DNA from: Candidatus Polarisedimenticolia bacterium
GTDB taxonomy: Bacteria; Acidobacteriota; Polarisedimenticolia; Gp22-AA2
Reading direction: 5' to 3'
Assembly (NCBI GenBank): GCA_036001465.1
Contig: DASYUH010000040.1
Coordinates: forward strand, 11,466 to 75,465
Length of the DNA stretch: 64,000 nt
Part shown: in pieces, positions 11,848 through 51,217 of the stretch
Position numbering within the stretch: the stretch's first letter is position 1
How the letters are laid out: each line of letters opens with the position of its first letter
The notes under the pieces: model-generated
Told to the model about the DNA's origin: nothing
Databases searched by the model: none
What the model saw: only the letters and a program-made list of their open reading frames with translations
Made by a program: the position numbers and the translations under genes

Positions 11848-11871
11848 TCCGGGCATTCGGCCGGGCCGCGC

Positions 11872-16138: not shown

Positions 16139-16142
<4 letters not shown>
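15492..16142 (-). CDS. Response regulator: REC domain + coiled coil + C-terminal four-Cys (CxxC...CxxC) domain
   Basis: REC residues D9/D10, D52 (ILDWMMP), T80 and K102. C-terminal LPICSYCKKIRDD...FSHGICPDCYQK. ATGA overlap with the kinase stop. Confidence 0.85.
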
Positions 16143-19791
<3,649 letters not shown>

Positions 19792-19792
<1 letters not shown>

Positions 19793-20349
19793 CACGGCGC
19801 CCCCTGAGCGCGCTTCCGGTCTCGGACCACCTTGCCCAACCTCAGGATCTTCGAGCTGATCGACAGCTTCGATCTCGAGGCCGCATCGACGTTCACTTCG
19901 AAGCGCACCATGTTCTGGTCCAGAAGAAGCCCCAGCACCCCTCCGTCCCTGACGAAACGCTCGGACTCGCTGACCGTGAGGACGTAGAGCCCCCGCAGCC
20001 GTCCGAGAATGTCCCGCAGGCGCGGCCCCTCCGACCGGCCCAGGAACAGCACGTGACACCCGGCCAGATCGTCGAGGGTCGTCGCCCGTCTGACGGTGAC
20101 GGGGTGGCCGTTCACTCTTTTCCCTTCGACCACCCGCTCGAGCGCGTCCGCGATCAACTCGTCCCCCAGGACCGCGAACACCATGGGTGCTTCGGGCGCC
20201 TCGAACGCCGACTCGGGCCAGTCGACGAACTTGGCGACGGTGTAGATGAAGCTGGCCTTGACGTCCTGCTCGAACAGGGGCGGAGGCTCAGGCTGGGCGG
20301 AGATGATCGAGAACGGAGCGCCGAGCAGGGAGACCCAGAGCAGGAACAC
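19792..20349 (-). CDS. DUF4154 / YfiR-like periplasmic protein
   Basis: Motifs SFIYTVAKFVDWPE and HVLFLG. Putative GTG start at 20349 gives a signal peptide VFLLWVSLLGAPFSIISA. The maximal ORF extends to 20565 but overlaps a non-coding repeat element, so the true start is uncertain. Confidence 0.6.
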
Positions 20350-20509
20350 GGCCGTGGCGGGCAGGCCGCTCCGGCCGCAATCCCCATGCGCCCTTCGGGT
20401 TCCGGCGGCGTGGGGCCGTCTGCTTCGTTGCCGCGCCTCGTCGATGCACAGGCATCGGACGTCGTCGCGGCGCCTCGCATCCCGTCCCACGGCGTCCGGA
20501 ACGCGACCC

Positions 20510-20543
20510 GGCCCAATACTCGGACAGGCTCCTAGCCGATGGC
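20510..20543 (+). repeat. Copy B of a ~30 nt dispersed element (CGCGRCCCGG...ATACTCGGACAGGCTCCTAG), followed 3 nt later by an ATG
   Basis: Near-identical to the copy at 49618-49651 (on the minus strand) and similar to the copy at 51181-51217. See findings. Confidence 0.6.
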
Positions 20544-20808
20544 GGCGCGCCACCCACGGACGCAAGGACTCTCCAGCGAGGCGGCGGGCCGTTCGGGTCC
20601 GGGTGAGCCAATCCGCCTCTCCTCCCGCGACTTACGGGTCCCGGACGATGGCGGCAAATATAGGGCTCCGGTACTCGGCCGGCAATGACGCGGCAGGGAG
20701 CCCGTCCGAGCAAATGGCCGGCTCCTGCGCTATACTCCGTCAAAAATCTGCCCACTCGCCCCCCACTGAAGAGGGCGAGGGGTTTGCCTGCCCTCCAGGA
20801 GGGACGGA

Positions 20809-21267
20809 ATGCCCAGGACGGAGTTTGTCACCAGGAACGCGCTTCGACTGACGCTCCAAGGCGCCCGACTGATGATGGCCGCGGCCGTCCGCAAGGCCCA
20901 GTCGATCAAGGTACCCATGGACATTGCGGTGGTGGACGACGCCGGTCACCTGCTGGTGTTCAATCGGATGGATGGGGCCAAGCTGAGCAGCATCGACATC
21001 GCCATCTCGAAGGCCTGGACGGCGGCCTGCGCCCGCCGCCCCACGCACGAGTATGCCGAGATCGCGGGGCCCGGACGGCCGGCGTTCGGCATCCACGTCA
21101 GCAACCATGGCCGCTTCATGATCGTGGGGGGCGGTCTTCCCGTGTACCTGGACGGTCAGATCGTCGGCGGCATCGGGTGCAGCAGCGGCACCATCCAGCA
21201 GGACCGCGAGGTCGCTGCGGCCGGCATCAACGTGCTGGCCTCCCGGACGCGAAGGCGGCGGCGCTAG
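20809..21267 (+). CDS. GlcG/HbpS-like (DUF336) heme-binding protein
   Basis: DUF336 hallmark ...IVGGGLPV...GGIGCSSG. SD GGAGGGA upstream. Confidence 0.75.
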   Translation: MPRTEFVTRNALRLTLQGARLMMAAAVRKAQSIKVPMDIAVVDDAGHLLVFNRMDGAKLSSIDIAISKAWTAACARRPTHEYAEIAGPGRPAFGIHVSNHGRFMIVGGGLPVYLDGQIVGGIGCSSGTIQQDREVAAAGINVLASRTRRRRR

Positions 21268-21299
21268 GTGCCTGTCCAGGTGTCCGGGCAGGCTCCTAG
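21264..21299. repeat. Imperfect 36 nt palindrome CTAGGTGCCTGTCC-aggt-GTCCGGGCAGGCTCCTAG between convergent genes
   Basis: The arms match the CTAGGAGCCTGTCC core of the dispersed element. Candidate bidirectional terminator or dimeric-protein binding site. Confidence 0.5.
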
Positions 21300-24225: not shown

Positions 24226-24900
24226 ATGGACAGAACCTCGATGGGACGGCTTCTCGGCACGCTTCTGATCCTCCTCCCGACCGCCCTCGTCGCGGCGGGG
24301 GATCCGCCTGCTCCTCCACCCGCCACGAAGACCGGGGCGGGAGAGGGACCGGCCGCCGCCCCCGGGGCGGATGAAACACTGACGGTCGAGCTGCACTCCG
24401 GGATCCCCGGCATGGCGTTCATCGGCCAGTCGCTCGACGATCTCCTGAAGAAGTTTCCCGGCGCCGACGTCACGGCGTTCGCCGGGCAGGATGACGCGGT
24501 CACCGTGAAGGTGCCGGCCGTCGGGATCTCCTGTATCGCCGTCGGCGCTCCCGACAGCCTGAAGGTCGCGTCGGTGGGCTTCAACCTGGAAGGGGCGTAC
24601 GAGGGGATGAGCGAGGGACATTTCAGGACAGGCAAGGGGATCGGCAAGGGCTCGACGGTCAACGACCTGCTCGAGGCCTACGGTCCGCCCATCGATCTGA
24701 TGTCGGCCCGCCCTCGCGGCGTGGCGCCCCGGGCGGACGCGAACGTGGATCCGTCCGTGCCGCGCAAGTATCAGTACGTCAACGAGAGCGGCTCGGTCCG
24801 GACCTATTTCTCGGTGGAGAACTACCGCGTGACCCGGATCGTGGTCAACGAGCTCGCGCCGCTGGAACGGCACCTGCTCAAGGGGCGCCCGAAGAACTGA
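24226..24900 (+). CDS. Hypothetical secreted protein
   Basis: Signal peptide MGRLLGTLLILLPTALVAAG followed by a Pro/Ala-rich linker. No recognised domain. Confidence 0.45.
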   Translation: MDRTSMGRLLGTLLILLPTALVAAGDPPAPPPATKTGAGEGPAAAPGADETLTVELHSGIPGMAFIGQSLDDLLKKFPGADVTAFAGQDDAVTVKVPAVGISCIAVGAPDSLKVASVGFNLEGAYEGMSEGHFRTGKGIGKGSTVNDLLEAYGPPIDLMSARPRGVAPRADANVDPSVPRKYQYVNESGSVRTYFSVENYRVTRIVVNELAPLERHLLKGRPKN

Positions 24901-26149
24901 CGTCATCGGCCCCCGGCCCCGGTGCGTTCCTCCCCAGGCCCTTCCAGAGCCAGAGACCCGACCCGGCAGTCGCCAGGATGGCCGCCGAGACCAGGTAGGG
25001 GTACGTGGGGTGGGGGCCATACAGCGACCCCGCCACGATCGGCCCCAGGATGCGACCGGCGGAGTCGAACGAATCCATGATCCCGATGGCGGCCCCCCGG
25101 CCGCGCGTCGTCCGCTTGGTGATGAGCGAGGCGTTGGTCGGCCGCATGACCTGGTTGCCGACACCGCTGATCAGCAGCGCCGCCGTCAAGCTGATGCGCC
25201 CCGACGCCGCGACCACGAGCAGAAAGCCGAGCGCGTTGACCAGGAGCCCCGCCAGCATCACGTTCTCCTCCCCCATCGCCTGGATGAGGCGACCCAGCAG
25301 GACCCCCTGCACCAGGAAGACGGCGGTCCCCATGAACAGGAACATCGTTCCCATGTCGTGCGCGCCGTAGCCGAAGCGCGCCTGGATGAACAGCGGGAAG
25401 ATGGACTCCAGCGCCGCCATGGCGAAGGTGACGAAGAACGCAACGAGATAGAACGGCAGGAGCGGGCTCCCCAGGGCGCGCAGCGGCCACGACCGGCGCG
25501 CCGCGGACTCGATGGAAATCGGCGTTTCGGCGAGGGCCTGCAGCACGGTGGTCACGCCGTCCGCCTCGGGCGCCGGACCGGCCGGGGTCGCCCGCGTCCC
25601 CAGGCTCTCGCGCAGGAGCACGGCGGCCAGCAGGCAGGTCAGCAGATTGAGCGCCGCGGCCGCCAGAAACGGCACACCGTGCCCGAAGCGCGACAGGATG
25701 CCGCCGAGGGCCGGCCCGAAGATGAACCCGAGCCCCATGGCCGCGCCGAGATATCCCATCCCTCGGCCGCGGCTCTTGTCGTCGGTCACGTCGGCGACGT
25801 AGGCCATGGCGGAGGGGAGCGCCGCCGAGGACATGAGACCCGACAGGGCGCGCGCGGCGTACAGCATGGGAAGCGTCGAGGAGATCCCGTACAGCGCCAG
25901 GCCGGCCGCGTTCCCCAGCAGGCCGAGGAGCAGGACCGGCTTGCGGCCTGTGCGATCGGACAGGCGCCCCCAGAACGGCGCGCAGAGAAACTGCATCAGG
26001 GAGTAGAGCGTGAACAGCAGGCTGATCTGGAACGAGGACGCGCGGAGCGCCTGGGCCTGGTAGGCGATATTGGGGATGATGATCCCGACGCCCAGCATGA
26101 GGAGGAACAGCGTCAGGAAGAGGACCGCGAGCGCCCGCCCGTTCAGCAC
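24878..26149 (-). CDS. MFS transporter (drug-efflux / TetA-like)
   Basis: 12 TM helices. MFS motif in GRLSDRTGRKPVLLLG. Confidence 0.85.
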   Translation of the reverse strand: MLNGRALAVLFLTLFLLMLGVGIIIPNIAYQAQALRASSFQISLLFTLYSLMQFLCAPFWGRLSDRTGRKPVLLLGLLGNAAGLALYGISSTLPMLYAARALSGLMSSAALPSAMAYVADVTDDKSRGRGMGYLGAAMGLGFIFGPALGGILSRFGHGVPFLAAAALNLLTCLLAAVLLRESLGTRATPAGPAPEADGVTTVLQALAETPISIESAARRSWPLRALGSPLLPFYLVAFFVTFAMAALESIFPLFIQARFGYGAHDMGTMFLFMGTAVFLVQGVLLGRLIQAMGEENVMLAGLLVNALGFLLVVAASGRISLTAALLISGVGNQVMRPTNASLITKRTTRGRGAAIGIMDSFDSAGRILGPIVAGSLYGPHPTYPYLVSAAILATAGSGLWLWKGLGRNAPGPGADDVSSSGAP

Positions 26150-26294
26150 GTCGTCTCCGTTTCACGCTTGAGAGCAGCCGATGATAGGGAGCGAGGTCCC
26201 GCCTGTCAATCGCGCCAGGAGCGTGTCCGGGCATTCGGTTGGGCGGCGTTCCGGGGTTGCCGGAGCGGCGCGCGGGCGGTAGACTCCGGCCCTC

Positions 26295-43871: not shown

Positions 43872-44357
43872 TCAGGCGAGCTCGGTCCGGACGAACTCCA
43901 GGACTTCTTCGGCGTGCTCCCGCACCTTGACCTTGGGGTAGACGCGACGGATGGTGCCGGTGGCGTCGATGACGAACGTGGCCCGGTGGATGCCGAAGAA
44001 CTCGCGACCGAGAAAGCTCTTCTTGCCGAAGACGCCGTAGGCGGTGGCGACCTCGGCGCTCGGATCGCTCAACAGGAGGAAGGGCAGCCGGTGCTTGCTG
44101 GAGAAGGTCTGGTGCGAGTCCGGCGCGTCGCGGCTCACCCCGAGGATGACGGTGTCGTGCGCCTCGTAGTCCCCGTACGCGTCGCGGAAGGCGCAGGCTT
44201 CCATGGTGCATCCCGGGGTCGAGTCTTTCGGATAGAAGTAGAGCACGAGGTTCTTCTTGCCGATGAAATCCTTCAGGCCCACGGTCTTGCCCCCGGTCCC
44301 CACCAGATTGAAATCGGGAGCCTTCGAGCCCACCTGCGGTAACGCGTCCATCTCCAT
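43872..44357 (-). CDS. bcp: Thiol peroxidase Bcp (peroxiredoxin)
   Basis: Peroxidatic Cys in PKDSTPGCT. Confidence 0.85.
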   Translation of the reverse strand: MEMDALPQVGSKAPDFNLVGTGGKTVGLKDFIGKKNLVLYFYPKDSTPGCTMEACAFRDAYGDYEAHDTVILGVSRDAPDSHQTFSSKHRLPFLLLSDPSAEVATAYGVFGKKSFLGREFFGIHRATFVIDATGTIRRVYPKVKVREHAEEVLEFVRTELA

Positions 44358-44545
44358 GCCGCGCCTCCTGACGATTGCCGGGCCCCGTCCGTTTGACGCC
44401 CGGACCACGATGATCTCGAGTGGGTGCAATTCTATCACAGCGCCCGCGGGCCACGGAGTCTGTCCGGGTATTCGGCCGGCGCGCCCGCGAATGGCACCGG
44501 GCCCGCGCGTCGTTGTGGAGCGGGCCGGCGCTCTGTTAGCATGCG

Positions 44546-47281: not shown

Positions 47282-48364
47282 TCAGGTCCGGGCCGTGATC
47301 TCCTGCTCGTACTTCCTGTACGTGTTGACGCTGATGATCGCCGCGAGCTTTTCGGCCATGTCCTTGAACGCGAGGGCCGGGCCGGACTTCGGATCGTACA
47401 CGACGACGGGGCGGCCGTCATCGCCCCCCTGCCGCAGCCGGACGTCGAGCGGAATCTCTCCCAGGAACGCCGTCTCGAACTGCTCCGCCACCCGCTTGCC
47501 GCCGCCGTGGCTGAAGATCTCGACCCGCTCGCCGCAGTGCGGGCAGCCGAAGTAGGACATGTTCTCGACCACGCCGAGGATCGGCACGTTCACCTTCCGG
47601 AACATCGCCGCCGCCTTGCGCACGTCGAGGAGGGCCACGTCCTGCGGGGTCGTAACCAGCACCGCCCCGGTCAGGGGGATGATCTGGGACAGGGTGAGCT
47701 GGACGTCGCCGGTGCCGGGCGGCAGGTCGATGAAGAGATAGTCGAGCTTCCCCCACAGCACGTCCCCCAGGAACTGCTTCATGGCGCCGTGCAGCATGGG
47801 ACCGCGCCAGACGACCGGCTCGTCCTCCTTCAGGAAGAAGGCCATCGACATCATCTTGATGCCGTGGATCGGCACCGGCAGGAGCTTGCGGTCCTGCACC
47901 TCGGGCTTCAGCTTCAGGCCCAGCATCTGCGGATCGTTCGGCCCGTAGATGTCGGCGTCCATCAGCCCGACGGCGGCGCCGGCGCGCGCGAAGGCCAGCG
48001 CCAGGTTCACGCTCACCGTGGACTTGCCGACTCCCCCCTTCCCCGAGCCGATGGCGACCACGTTCGCCACCTCCGGGATCAGCCCCCCCTCGGTCTCGAT
48101 ACTCCGGCGTACCTTGGCCCCCATCTTGAGGTCGACGGAGGCGACTCCGGGAAGCCGCGACAGGGCGTCCCGGACGTCCTTCTCGATCTGGGCCTTCAGC
48201 GGACATCCGGGGGTCGTGAGGTTCACCGTCAGGGAGACCTTGTCCCCATCGACGAGGAGGTTCTCGATCATGCCGAGCGAGACGATGTCGACGTTCAGCT
48301 CGGGATCCTTCACCGTCCGGAGGGCGTCCAGGACGATGGCCGGCTCGTTGCGCGGCGCGCTCAC
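47282..48364 (-). CDS. apbC: Fe-S cluster carrier P-loop NTPase ApbC/Mrp (NUBPL/Ind1 homolog)
   Basis: N-terminal DUF59-like, Walker A GKGGVGKST, CPHC motif. Confidence 0.9.
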   Translation of the reverse strand: MSAPRNEPAIVLDALRTVKDPELNVDIVSLGMIENLLVDGDKVSLTVNLTTPGCPLKAQIEKDVRDALSRLPGVASVDLKMGAKVRRSIETEGGLIPEVANVVAIGSGKGGVGKSTVSVNLALAFARAGAAVGLMDADIYGPNDPQMLGLKLKPEVQDRKLLPVPIHGIKMMSMAFFLKEDEPVVWRGPMLHGAMKQFLGDVLWGKLDYLFIDLPPGTGDVQLTLSQIIPLTGAVLVTTPQDVALLDVRKAAAMFRKVNVPILGVVENMSYFGCPHCGERVEIFSHGGGKRVAEQFETAFLGEIPLDVRLRQGGDDGRPVVVYDPKSGPALAFKDMAEKLAAIISVNTYRKYEQEITART

Positions 48365-49617
48365 GATCGATCCTCCGCGTCCTCGGCGGCGGCGCCGCGC
48401 GGCGGCGGCAGCGGCGTCGCGGCCGCCGCTTCAAGGGTACCGGCCCAGGGGCGGGACAGCCCGGTGAGGTCGCGCGTCACCTCTCCCACGCCGAGGACGA
48501 GCACCTTGAAGCGATCTCCCATCCCGCCGGGCAGGACCAGGTCCTTGAGAGCCTCCCGTTCCTCGATCGCCTCGACCCGCCGTGCCACGGGGACAGGCAC
48601 CTGCCCGGGACCGCCGGCCGCGACGGCCGCCGGCACCGCCAGGAAATCGAGCGCTCCCAGCGCGAGAAGGAACCGCGATTGGGTCGTGAGGCCCAGGAGG
48701 CGCGCGCCGGCGGTCTCCGCCGCGCGCTTCACGGCGGTGAAATCGACGTGCGCGGTGAGATCCTGCTCTCCGGGCCTCAGGAGAAACTCCTCGTTGACTC
48801 GATGCCGGTGATACGCCAGGAGCGTGCCACGAGGGCGCGCCGGGACGTAGAGATCGCGGGCCTCGTATCCATAGTCCACGAGCACCATGTGGCCGCGCTG
48901 CAGCAGGCCGGCGGCCCAGGCCACCCAGCAGGGGGCGGCCAGGTTCAGGTCGACCTCCTGACCGTCCTCGAGAGTGATCTCCGAGTCGGCGAGGAATCGT
49001 CCCAACGCGTCGCTCGACAGCGGTCCCGTGATTTCCTCCAGCCGACCGTCCCGCGAGGCGACGTGGATCTCCCGCGGCCCGTCCGGCGTGCCCACGACGC
49101 GGTGCACCGGAAAAGCGTCCAGGACCTCGTTCGCGAACAGGCATCCGGCGAACTTGGCCCGCGCGTCGAGCTCCGGCTCGGTCAGCCACGAGACCGGGGC
49201 TGCACCGCGCCCTCCCAGTCGGGCGCGCTGGCGATCCCTGAGGGCGCGGCTCGGTTCGACCATCAGGTACCGAAGGGCCCGTAGAAACCCGTCGTGCCGC
49301 GCCGCTTCCTGCAGGAAATCCCAGGCGAAGTGCCCCTCACCGGGACCGAACTCGACGAACAGGTACGGGTCGGGGCGGCCGGTACGCCGCCACATCTCCT
49401 CGGCCTGGCGGGCGATCAGCGCCCCGAAGGCGCGATGCAGGCCGCTGCTCGTGAGATAGTCCCGCCCGCCGCCGCCCCCGAGACCCCGCGTGTAATATCC
49501 GTGGGTCGGGTGGTACAGGCACATCTCCATGAACCGGGCGAAGGGGATCGGCCCGCGGCCGGCGATCTCCGCGGCGATTTCAGCCTCGAGGCGGTCACGG
49601 GTGTCGGAGGCAGCCAT
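48361..49617 (-). CDS. MidA-family SAM-dependent methyltransferase (DUF185; NDUFAF7 homolog)
   Basis: MidA-like N-terminus (FMEMCLYHPTHGYYT) and methyltransferase fold. Confidence 0.7.
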   Translation of the reverse strand: MAASDTRDRLEAEIAAEIAGRGPIPFARFMEMCLYHPTHGYYTRGLGGGGGRDYLTSSGLHRAFGALIARQAEEMWRRTGRPDPYLFVEFGPGEGHFAWDFLQEAARHDGFLRALRYLMVEPSRALRDRQRARLGGRGAAPVSWLTEPELDARAKFAGCLFANEVLDAFPVHRVVGTPDGPREIHVASRDGRLEEITGPLSSDALGRFLADSEITLEDGQEVDLNLAAPCWVAWAAGLLQRGHMVLVDYGYEARDLYVPARPRGTLLAYHRHRVNEEFLLRPGEQDLTAHVDFTAVKRAAETAGARLLGLTTQSRFLLALGALDFLAVPAAVAAGGPGQVPVPVARRVEAIEEREALKDLVLPGGMGDRFKVLVLGVGEVTRDLTGLSRPWAGTLEAAAATPLPPPRGAAAEDAEDRS

Positions 49618-49651
49618 CGCCTAGGAGCCTGTCCGAGTATCGGTACGGGCC
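49618..49651 (-). repeat. Copy A of the ~30 nt dispersed element. On the minus strand it reads CGCGGCCCGTACCGATACTCGGACAGGCTCCTAG-gcg-ATG(midA)
   Basis: Overlaps the last 10 codons and stop of nuoB and ends 3 nt before the midA start codon. Confidence 0.6.
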
Positions 49652-50202
49652 GCGCGAGCGGCGGCCCCGGGGAGCGCCTTGCCCCGCCCGGAGCCCGCCT
49701 GCTCCTCCACCAGTCGCTGCACCTGCATGATCCCTTCGATCAGGGCCTCGGGGCGCGGCGGGCAGCCGGGAATGTAGACGTCCACGGGAATGATCTCGTC
49801 CACCCCCTGAACGACCGGGTAGGATCGGAACATCCCTCCCGATGAGGCGCACGCCCCCATCGCGATGACCCATTTCGGCTCGGGCATCTGGTCGTAGATC
49901 CGCTTCACCGCCGGCGCCATCTTCTTGGTGACGGTCCCCGCCACGATCATCATGTCGGCCTGTCGCGGCGAGAAGCGCAGCGCCTCCGCCCCGAAGCGCG
50001 CCACGTCGTAGCGCGGCGCCACCATCGCCATCAGCTCGATGGCGCAGCAGGCCAGCCCCATCGGCATCGGCCAGAGCGAGTTCTTGCGGCCCCAGGCGAC
50101 GTAATCGGCCAGCCGGGTCGTGAGCAGCCACTGGTCCAGGGCGCCCTCCTCGTGCCTCCCGGCGAGGGCGGCGGCCGCGTCGCGGTTCGGGGCGTCGCTC
50201 AA
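49621..50202 (-). CDS. nuoB: NADH-quinone oxidoreductase subunit B-like (NuoB / [NiFe]-hydrogenase small-subunit fold)
   Basis: [23 protein letters not shown]. No in-frame ATG; putative TTG start at 50202 overlaps the nuoI stop. Confidence 0.8.
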
Positions 50203-50762
50203 CGGACCGCGCTCCTCTCCCCGCCCGCGGTCCCGGTCGCGGCCTTCTCCGCTCCGCCAACGAGACGCGACCACTTCCGGATCGAATCCGGACGGATGCC
50301 GCCCATTTCGAGCAGCTTCTCCTTGGGGAAGATCATGTCCTCGCGGCTCAGGCCGACCGTCGAGTATTCCCGGGTCAGGAAAATCGCCTGCTCGGGGCAG
50401 ACCTCCTCGCAATACCCGCACATGATGCAGCGCAGCATGTTGATGTCGAACACCTTCGGTCCCTTCTCGACACCCGTCTCGATCTCCTGCGCCTCGATGT
50501 GGATGGCCTTGGGCGGGCAGACGTACTCGCACAGAAAGCACGCGACGCATTTCACGCGCTCGGCCTGGTCGCGCACCAGGGCCGGCAGGCCGCGGTAACG
50601 CTCGGGCATCGCCCATGTCTGCTCGGGGTACTGCATCGTCACCTTGCGCCGGAACAGGTGCCGGAAGGTGATCCACATCCCCTTGAGGATCGACGGAAGG
50701 TAGGTCAGCTCGAGAAGGGTCGGTCTGCCCGGGCGATTCACCGGCTTGCCGATCAATGGCAT
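50199..50762 (-). CDS. nuoI: NADH-quinone oxidoreductase subunit I-like (2x[4Fe-4S] ferredoxin)
   Basis: [12 protein letters not shown] and [12 protein letters not shown] plus NuoI-specific N-terminal region ([15 protein letters not shown]). Confidence 0.85.
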
Positions 50763-51163
50763 CGCACCGCCTCCCGCTCCGCCCGGGCCGCCTCCCGGTG
50801 GCGCCTCAGGGCCTCCCGGATCGCCTGCTCCGCCAGGACCGAGCACTGGATTTTCGATGCCGGCAGGCCTCCCAGCGCCTCGACCACATCGTGGTTGGTC
50901 AGGCGCGCGGCGTCCTCGACGCTGCGGCCCCGGAGGAGCGTCGTCGCCATGCTGCCCGAGGCGATCGCCGCGGTGCAACCGAAGCTCTTGAAGCGGGCCT
51001 CGACCACGATCTCCTTCTCGATCCGGAGGCTGATCCTGAGGACGTCGCCCGTCTCCGGGTCGCCGACCTGGGCCACCGCGGAGGTTCCATGGATCTCGCC
51101 GACATGACGCGGGTTCCGGGCGTGGTCCATGACCGTGTCGCTGTACCTGAGCGGTTCATCCAT
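50753..51163 (-). CDS. NifU/IscU-type Fe-S cluster assembly scaffold
   Basis: [32 protein letters not shown]. Confidence 0.85.
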
Positions 51164-51180: not shown

Positions 51181-51217
51181 CTGGAAGCCTGTCCGAGCAT
51201 TCGACCGGGCCGCCCGC
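51181..51217 (-). repeat. Copy C (variant) of the dispersed element, 17 nt upstream of the NifU-like start
   Basis: Minus strand reads CGGGCGGCCCGGTCGAATGCTCGGACAGGCTTCCAG. Confidence 0.5.

Follow-up and report, generated by a model that had tools for sequence, protein, structure and literature searches.

The motif of about 30 nt that recurs in this stretch of DNA is, with a probability that we put at about 0.93, the terminal inverted repeat of ISMno38-like insertion sequences of the IS1182 family and of the MITEs derived from them. Its ends occur elsewhere as inverted pairs with CTA and TAG flanks, the longer pairs enclose a transposase of this family, the ends are shared with ISMno38, copies are present or absent at the same sites in relatives, and there is no link to gene starts. 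The analysed stretch of 64,000 nt, hereafter the window, has a GC content of 69% and is part of a JGI metagenome contig of 227 kb (Ga0376076_0000083), of which the analysis covered ~80 kb. The copies in it are ordinary mobile-element relics of a MITE family that belongs to the ISMno38-like branch of IS1182, whose target is CTAG. They amount to non-autonomous debris, namely one left-truncated MITE, one palindrome made of two termini, one mini-element and five solo terminal repeats.

Copies of the motif in the window

The initial annotation described three copies of the motif directly 5' of start codons. All three are present, with a similarity far beyond chance, although two of the positions needed adjustment. 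Copy 1 lies at 20502-20535 on the plus strand, 8 nt away from the 20510-20543 given for it, and copy 2 at 49654-49621 on the minus strand, 3 nt away from 49651-49618. Copy 3 was confirmed at about 51216-51181 on the minus strand, as was the spacing of 3, 3 and 17 nt between copies 1, 2 and 3 and the following ATGs (20539, 49617 and 51163). We called real genes from third-position GC and Pfam matches. The 49-codon ORF at 20539, which had been listed among the downstream ORFs and genes, has no coding signal in its third-position GC. The copies had also been said to overlap coding sequence; copies 1 and 2 do end in an in-frame TAG, and only in nuoB is that frame the frame of a real gene.

The motif set is larger than these three copies: the window contains eight, some of them fragments, and a ninth lies 6.8 kb to its left (5888-5846 of L008; L numbers denote the individual loci). 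When up to three mismatches are allowed, the 17-nt core CTCGGACAGGCTCCTAG matches the window seven times against 0.27 expected, a count reached in 0 of 100 shuffles of the window. A profile made from the copies gave six full-length matches in the window, with E-values from 1e-9 to 2e-6, and also picked up half of a copy at 11871-11848 and, as a weak match, the inverted pair at 21264-21299. The outer end reads ...AATACTCGGACAGGCTC followed by CTAG, or GGAGCCTGTCCGAGTATT when read inward. In the acidobacterial MITE subfamily the terminal repeat extends to about 31-33 nt (GGAGCCTGTCCGGGTATTCGGCCGGGCCGCGCG), and this is the element of about 30 nt that had been reported.

Copy 1 is the end of a truncated MITE at 20365-20532 (plus strand), which corresponds to the right-hand ~170 nt of an acidobacterial MITE of ~275 nt. 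The terminal repeat occupies 20502-20532 and is flanked by TAG at 20533-20535; side-by-side comparison with full MITEs showed that the element has lost ~100 nt on its left side together with the terminal repeat there. The best blastn match, at 2897-2730 of L117 from the MAG labelled "Acidobacteria bacterium CR_Sed_300A_bin.1", has 88% identity over 169 nt, and about ten other MITE copies in acidobacterial MAGs match at 77-85% over 150-170 nt. Each of four independent short-read assemblies of this organism starts at precisely the same base, 31 nt in from the end of copy 1. They break at 20505 because this end is a repeat, where assemblers stop. For the other window copies, blastn matches to MITEs cover only 24-45 nt, which is the terminal repeat itself.

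The truncated MITE lies next to the YfiR-like gene, which runs on the minus strand from 19792 to about 20350/20380. The MITE boundary at 20365 is 16 nt upstream of a candidate start for this gene, GTG at 20349 (minus strand), which is the only in-frame start outside the MITE; the next one, GTG at 20490, falls within it (region 20349-20565, minus strand). A start at 20349 gives a protein beginning MFLLWVSLLGAPFSIISA..., a signal peptide without a charged N-region. The original 5' end of the gene may have been lost or replaced. Immediately downstream of the YfiR-like gene is a gene for a large hybrid histidine kinase (16139-20059, minus strand), in which we recognized by eye HAMP, GAF, PAS, HisKA/HATPase, two receiver and Hpt domains. 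The YfiR-type periplasmic protein is thus paired here with a sensor kinase and not with a YfiN-type cyclase.

Copy 2 is a solo terminal repeat (49621-49654, minus strand, including the flanking TAG at 49623-49621) at the junction of two minus-strand genes, nuoB, which ends at 49621, and midA (48361-49617). It supplies the last ~11 codons and the stop of nuoB, so that the tail that comes from element and flank reads ...ARTDTRTGS before the TAG stop, and the midA ATG lies 3 nt beyond. Copy 3, also a solo terminal repeat (51181-51216, minus strand), is located in the 5'UTR of nifU (50753-51163, minus strand), downstream of a sigma-70-like promoter at 51279-51251. It has two mismatches in the 17-nt core and lacks the TAG flank. 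The genes around these two copies, nifU, an ORF for a nuoI-like 2x[4Fe-4S] ferredoxin, nuoB and midA, stand together on one strand (49621-51163, minus), apparently separate from a full nuo operon, and the nifU, nuoB, midA arrangement is common to the relatives L132, L134 and L149.

Two degenerate solo terminal repeats, both on the minus strand, lie in divergent spacers. That at 26214-26252 is between an MFS transporter gene (24878-26149, minus strand) and an FAD-oxidoreductase gene, and a promoter-like site, TTGACA-17-TATCAT, starts 5 nt past its end. The other, at 44451-44489, separates the gene for an AhpC-family peroxiredoxin (43872-44438, minus strand) from that for a lyase of the class II fumarase/aspartase family. 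The fifth solo terminal repeat is a fragment of the inner part only (11848-11871, minus strand; GCGCGGCCCGGCCGAATGCCCGGA; nhmmer E = 0.0023) that matches the MITE end of L117 at 96% over 24 nt (blastn). It fills the entire 24-nt spacer between two plus-strand genes and is antisense to both.

The mini-element at 20697-20725 (minus strand) has 29 nt, of the form GGAGCC-N17-GGCTCC, within a motif match that spans 20731-20693. Of one end it retains the outermost 6 nt, and the other terminal repeat survives in diverged form; the element folds weakly (-22 kcal/mol, z -1.4). Its outer end is 150-160 bp from the outer end of the truncated MITE, and the two face each other. The same kind of architecture was seen in L108, L123, L012 and L074. 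The remaining copy, at 21264-21299, is a 30-nt palindrome (21267-21296) in which two termini stand back to back with CTA...TAG flanks. These flanks are the TAG stops of two convergent genes, the HbpS-like gene (20809-21267, plus strand; stop at 21265-21267) and a DUF72 gene (minus strand; stop at 21298-21296), and the predicted hairpin is strong (-34.3 kcal/mol, z -3.7). Complete mini-elements of 49-55 bp are known in L099, L107, L086 and L023.

Solo terminal repeats are therefore the commonest form in the window (5/8), and we found no complete MITE with both ends there; both termini occur together only at 21264-21299 (30 nt) and perhaps at 20697-20725 (29 nt). At several window copies the CTAG flank is absent, with CAG, TGG, GTGG or CTG instead. 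The window copies are best described as relics of MITEs or of their terminal repeats. Relative to the genes, four copies are in divergent spacers and the inverted pair at 21264-21299 is between convergent genes. Spacers between same-strand genes hold copies 2 and 3 in the sense orientation and the copies at 11848-11871 and in L008 in the antisense orientation.

Paired ends and families in other genomes

We scanned one representative genome per species with the pattern ATRCYCGGACAGGCTCCT. The scan found at least 131 element ends in at least 120 DNA stretches from many phyla, to be read against the roughly 70 chance matches that we estimate for this pattern in 596 Gb; some of the matches in other genomes must therefore be fortuitous. 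Acidobacteriota predominate among the matches listed, which also come from Alpha- and Gammaproteobacteria, Planctomycetota, Nitrospira, Elusimicrobia, Dehalococcoidia, Latescibacterota, Armatimonadota and Eisenbacteria. Among these matches, the sequence past ...GGCTCC-TAG differs from hit to hit, and the sequence before the motif falls into families. An unrelated outer flank together with family-wise inner sequence identifies the motif as the terminus of a transposable element. Three matches in Pseudomonas/Halopseudomonas (L028, L079 and L125) have a common upstream flank, cttgcttgataacggccATGCTCGGACAGGCTCCTct, are alike on both sides and have no TAG. They appear to be a single conserved site in the chromosome, with a fortuitous match to the pattern, and not element ends.

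A search upstream of the ends for the reverse complement gave at least about 50 inverted pairings, about 40 of them 49-425 bp long and nine 1376-1584 bp long. A pairing of 1131 bp in L120 was discarded as a spurious cross-pairing of two neighbouring MITEs. Among the matches listed, the paired elements are flanked cta[...]tag in nearly all cases, and TAG directly follows 87 of 128 ends. Upstream sequence of 450 nt or more is available for 98 of the listed ends; 48 of these are paired at MITE distance, 10 are paired at insertion-sequence distance and 38 have no partner. Solo ends are common in other genomes too.

The MITE family of ~273-275 bp has members in L087, L089, L113, L114, L117 and L121. 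In one acidobacterial MAG, a full insertion sequence (L110) and MITEs of ~273 bp (L087, L089 and L114) occur together and have the same 20 nt at their ends. Within the ~275-nt MITE there is an AGGAGGA-N4-6-ATG (L117 2733-3006; L144 ~2480-2758), from which, in L117 and L144, an ORF of ~66 codons reads across the terminal repeat as far as the flanking TAG (...NTRTGS*). Since the corresponding frame in L087 stops after 5 codons, this ORF has probably arisen by chance in GC-rich sequence. At 774-1094 of L101, two MITEs of ~160 bp face each other head to head, separated by 1 nt.

An IS1182-family transposase in the full-length elements

Nine elements of 1376-1584 bp have inverted ends of the GGAGCCTGTCCGAGTAT type among the matches listed. 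IS1182-family elements are 1.3-1.95 kb long. The long elements encode a single transposase that scores 281-392 bits with NF033551, the NCBIfam model for IS1182 (cut-off 270); the individual scores, all from related loci, are 337 bits in L011, 376 in L046, 392 in L110 and 281 in L076. The transposases of full-length copies also carry the Pfam domains DUF772 and DDE_Tnp_1. One Bryobacterales MAG has three identical copies of 1575 bp and one near-identical copy of 1584 bp. Through annotated plasmids we found the same ends in ISMno38, on plasmid pMNOD02 of Methylobacterium nodulans ORS 2060, which begins cta-GGAGCCCGTCCGAGTAA and finishes TTACTCGGACGGGCTCC-tag.

A tblastn search with the 439-aa transposase of L046 found no IS1182 transposase in the window and ~16 kb of flanking sequence, and this region has no complete MITE either. 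The window copies are thus assigned to this group by their sequence identity to elements of other genomes.

Occupied and empty sites in relatives

We collected relatives with MidA as the query and compared the orthologous sites. The nuoB-midA junction is without the motif in L131, L133, L134 and L149 (74-86% MidA identity), where nuoB ends in ...GCGG-TAA/TGA 1-3 nt before the ATG. A short form of the motif is present at this junction in L132 (85% MidA identity), with TGA. L130 and L144 (86-90% MidA identity) have an entire 275-nt MITE there, with its right end directly against the midA ATG (GGCTCCTAGgATG). Compared with the empty sites, the window has only about 21-30 nt of extra sequence between nuoB and midA, and we infer that the short form is best explained as what is left of a full MITE at this position. 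In L144 (2240-2760), the full MITE by midA is preceded by an unrelated antisense gene and not by nuoB, which suggests that the MITE marks the breakpoint of a rearrangement.

The nifU promoter, TTGACA-N17-TACGAT, is conserved in L132, L134 and L149, and the motif in the 5'UTR is present in the window only. At both nuoB-midA and the nifU 5'UTR, orthologous sites thus differ by the presence or absence of the element, and empty sites are among them.

Regulatory, RNA-level and REP-like interpretations

The initial annotation offered three candidate functions, an alternative-sigma promoter or operator, an element of translation initiation or the 5'UTR, and a miniature REP-like repeat. Control of the downstream genes from a host site, by an alternative sigma factor or by a global regulator such as an Rrf2/IscR-like factor, would agree with the nearby nifU, nuoB, radical SAM and AhpC genes, with the position of six of the eight copies upstream of a same-strand gene and of four in divergent spacers, and with the two copies that end 5-8 nt before a sigma-70-like -35 hexamer. 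ATACTCGGAC also loosely resembles an IscR type-1 half-site. The motif itself is non-palindromic and contains no -35/-10 pair. The sigma-70-like promoter-like sites are all outside it, upstream of one copy and downstream of two, which is inconsistent for a control site, and two copies are antisense in spacers between same-strand genes. Neither position nor orientation is fixed, and the motif is absent from the orthologous nifU 5'UTR and nuoB-midA sites in close relatives that keep the genes and the promoter. The identical 20-mer ends transposase-bearing elements in unrelated phyla. Nor are the ends enriched near ORF starts, as had been proposed. For 121 ends elsewhere (among the matches listed), an ORF of at least 120 codons starts no more than 40 nt downstream of the element end in 26.4% of cases against 23.7% at random, and in other genomes the distances from end to ORF start are scattered among the matches listed. 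We consider a regulatory site very improbable.

The motif was also compared by eye with the consensuses for sigma-54 (GG-N10-GC), ECF (GAAC...CGT) and IscR type-1 sites, and none fits. The two sigma-70-like matches beside relics, both on the minus strand, are TTGCCG-17-TATATT at 20657-20685 and TTGACA-17-TATCAT at 26181-26209, 5-8 nt past the outer ends of the relics. They may be a coincidence, or the elements may tend to land by promoters.

A role at the RNA level, whether in the 5'UTR, in translation initiation or coupling, or as a small structured RNA, would account for the three copies that end 3-17 nt before an ATG and for copy 3, which is within a predicted 5'UTR. It would not account for the ORF after copy 1, which is non-coding, for the variable orientation relative to transcription or for the copies missing in close relatives. 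No Rfam family reached threshold in the whole 64-kb window, and single copies fold like shuffles (z +1.1 to -1.4) and have no common structure, so we give this proposal next to no credence. A conserved hairpin in single copies (CCGA...TCGG or GGAGCC...GGCTCC) was considered and rejected; it is not kept across copies, and its folding is no better than that of shuffles.

The third candidate came nearest, since the motif is indeed a dispersed repeat of mobile-element origin; it is not REP-like, being the terminal inverted repeat of IS1182 elements with a DDE transposase. REP units are imperfect palindromes with a conserved GTAG-type head and are associated with a Y1 (RAYT) transposase. REP elements spread by such an IS200-like transposase would likewise be short, GC-rich, dispersed and intergenic, and one pair of copies in the window does form a hairpin between convergent genes. 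Single units here are neither palindromic nor able to form stable hairpins. Among the matches listed, the DNA between inverted partners 49-1584 bp apart has no gene or encodes an IS1182 DDE transposase, and in no case a Y1 transposase. A CTAG that is duplicated at or flanks the insertions is the habit of elements with terminal inverted repeats and target duplications, and not that of REPs. With no palindromic unit, and no Y1 transposase among the matches listed, a REP origin is hardly credible.

Proposed origin of the copies and implications

The IS1182-related interpretation suggests how the copies could have come to their present positions. The DDE transposase would bind the element ends, cut at the outermost bases and insert the element at the palindrome CTAG, leaving CTA on one side and TAG on the other; a 4-bp duplication of CTAG and a duplication of TA within CTAG look the same in the sequence. 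MITEs, which have no transposase of their own, would be moved in trans by full-length copies, and the solo repeats would be the residue of full MITEs after internal or one-sided deletion.

CTAG contains TAG on either strand. Any gene that reads into an element inserted at or close to a gene end therefore acquires a TAG stop. Insertion at a CTAG near the end of nuoB explains its ~11 element-derived codons and the TAG 3 nt before midA, and the same property of CTAG explains why both convergent stops at 21264-21299 are in the flanks of the palindrome. The closeness of the motif to ATGs follows from insertion into short spacers, after which the next genes simply follow. The position of the motif by start codons is incidental and not a function.

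The value of the finding is mainly in annotation, and a false regulatory lead is removed. A mobile-element origin can be assigned to the last ~11 codons and stop of nuoB, to the sequence directly 5' of the YfiR-like gene and to both stops at 21265-21298. The analysis also documents an unnamed MITE family of uncultured Acidobacteriota and ties it to the ISMno38-like branch of IS1182, the branch that targets CTAG. A nearly identical 20-nt end recurs in many phyla, which is of use to catalogues of insertion sequences and MITEs; the biology is unsurprising.

It is conceivable, and in our judgment unlikely, that some of the solo repeats, or the habit of targeting CTAG itself, have been put to use by the host. 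Insertion at CTAG would rebuild TAG on both strands, which could let the element settle at gene ends and in very short spacers with the genes intact. It would thereby rewrite C-terminal tails (about 11 residues added to NuoB), replace spacers (the 24 nt at 11848-11871) and add a strong hairpin between convergent genes. If so, a subset of relics would be kept as terminator-like hairpins, as spacers at operon junctions or as binding sites for transposase-derived factors. A near-invariant 20-nt end across about ten phyla would also suggest that one subgroup of IS1182 has spread horizontally with unusual frequency.

Comparison with known systems

The closest known element is ISMno38, which has 1468 bp and a single transposase gene annotated as IS1182-like. 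Its terminal repeat GGAGCCCGTCCGAGTAA agrees with GGAGCCTGTCCGAGTAT at 15 of 17 positions, and it has the same CTA...TAG flanks. The window differs in having neither a transposase nor a complete element and in belonging to a host of another phylum, and the repeat of the acidobacterial subfamily is longer (about 31-33 nt), with a GGGCCGCG subterminal block. A literature search that included the end sequence GGAGCCTGTCCGAG returned no paper on this MITE family or its end in the portions of the sources that were accessible.

Two described members of the IS1182 family also have short targets. ISPse1 from Paracoccus has 1653 bp, 16-bp inverted repeats and a 4-bp direct repeat (PMC3281130), and ISPsy36 from Pseudomonas syringae pv. 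actinidiae targets the 4-bp palindrome GGCC (PMC8027508). By analogy, the CTAG target fits the habit seen in these two elements; the likeness is drawn from descriptions of size and target, and the target tetranucleotide differs.

With REP/RAYT systems the motif shares the appearance of short, dispersed, GC-rich intergenic repeats that sometimes form hairpins as inverted pairs, and it differs from them in its non-palindromic single units, its DDE transposase and its CTAG-flanked ends. The broader parallel is with bacterial MITEs that derive from DDE insertion sequences, such as the IS630-derived Nezha and the neisserial Correia elements. Like these, the elements described here are short (49-425 bp) and non-autonomous, have ends identical to those of a co-resident full insertion sequence, use a fixed short target and occur in multiple copies per genome, mostly between genes. 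What sets them apart from other bacterial MITEs is the parent family, IS1182, and the target, CTAG.
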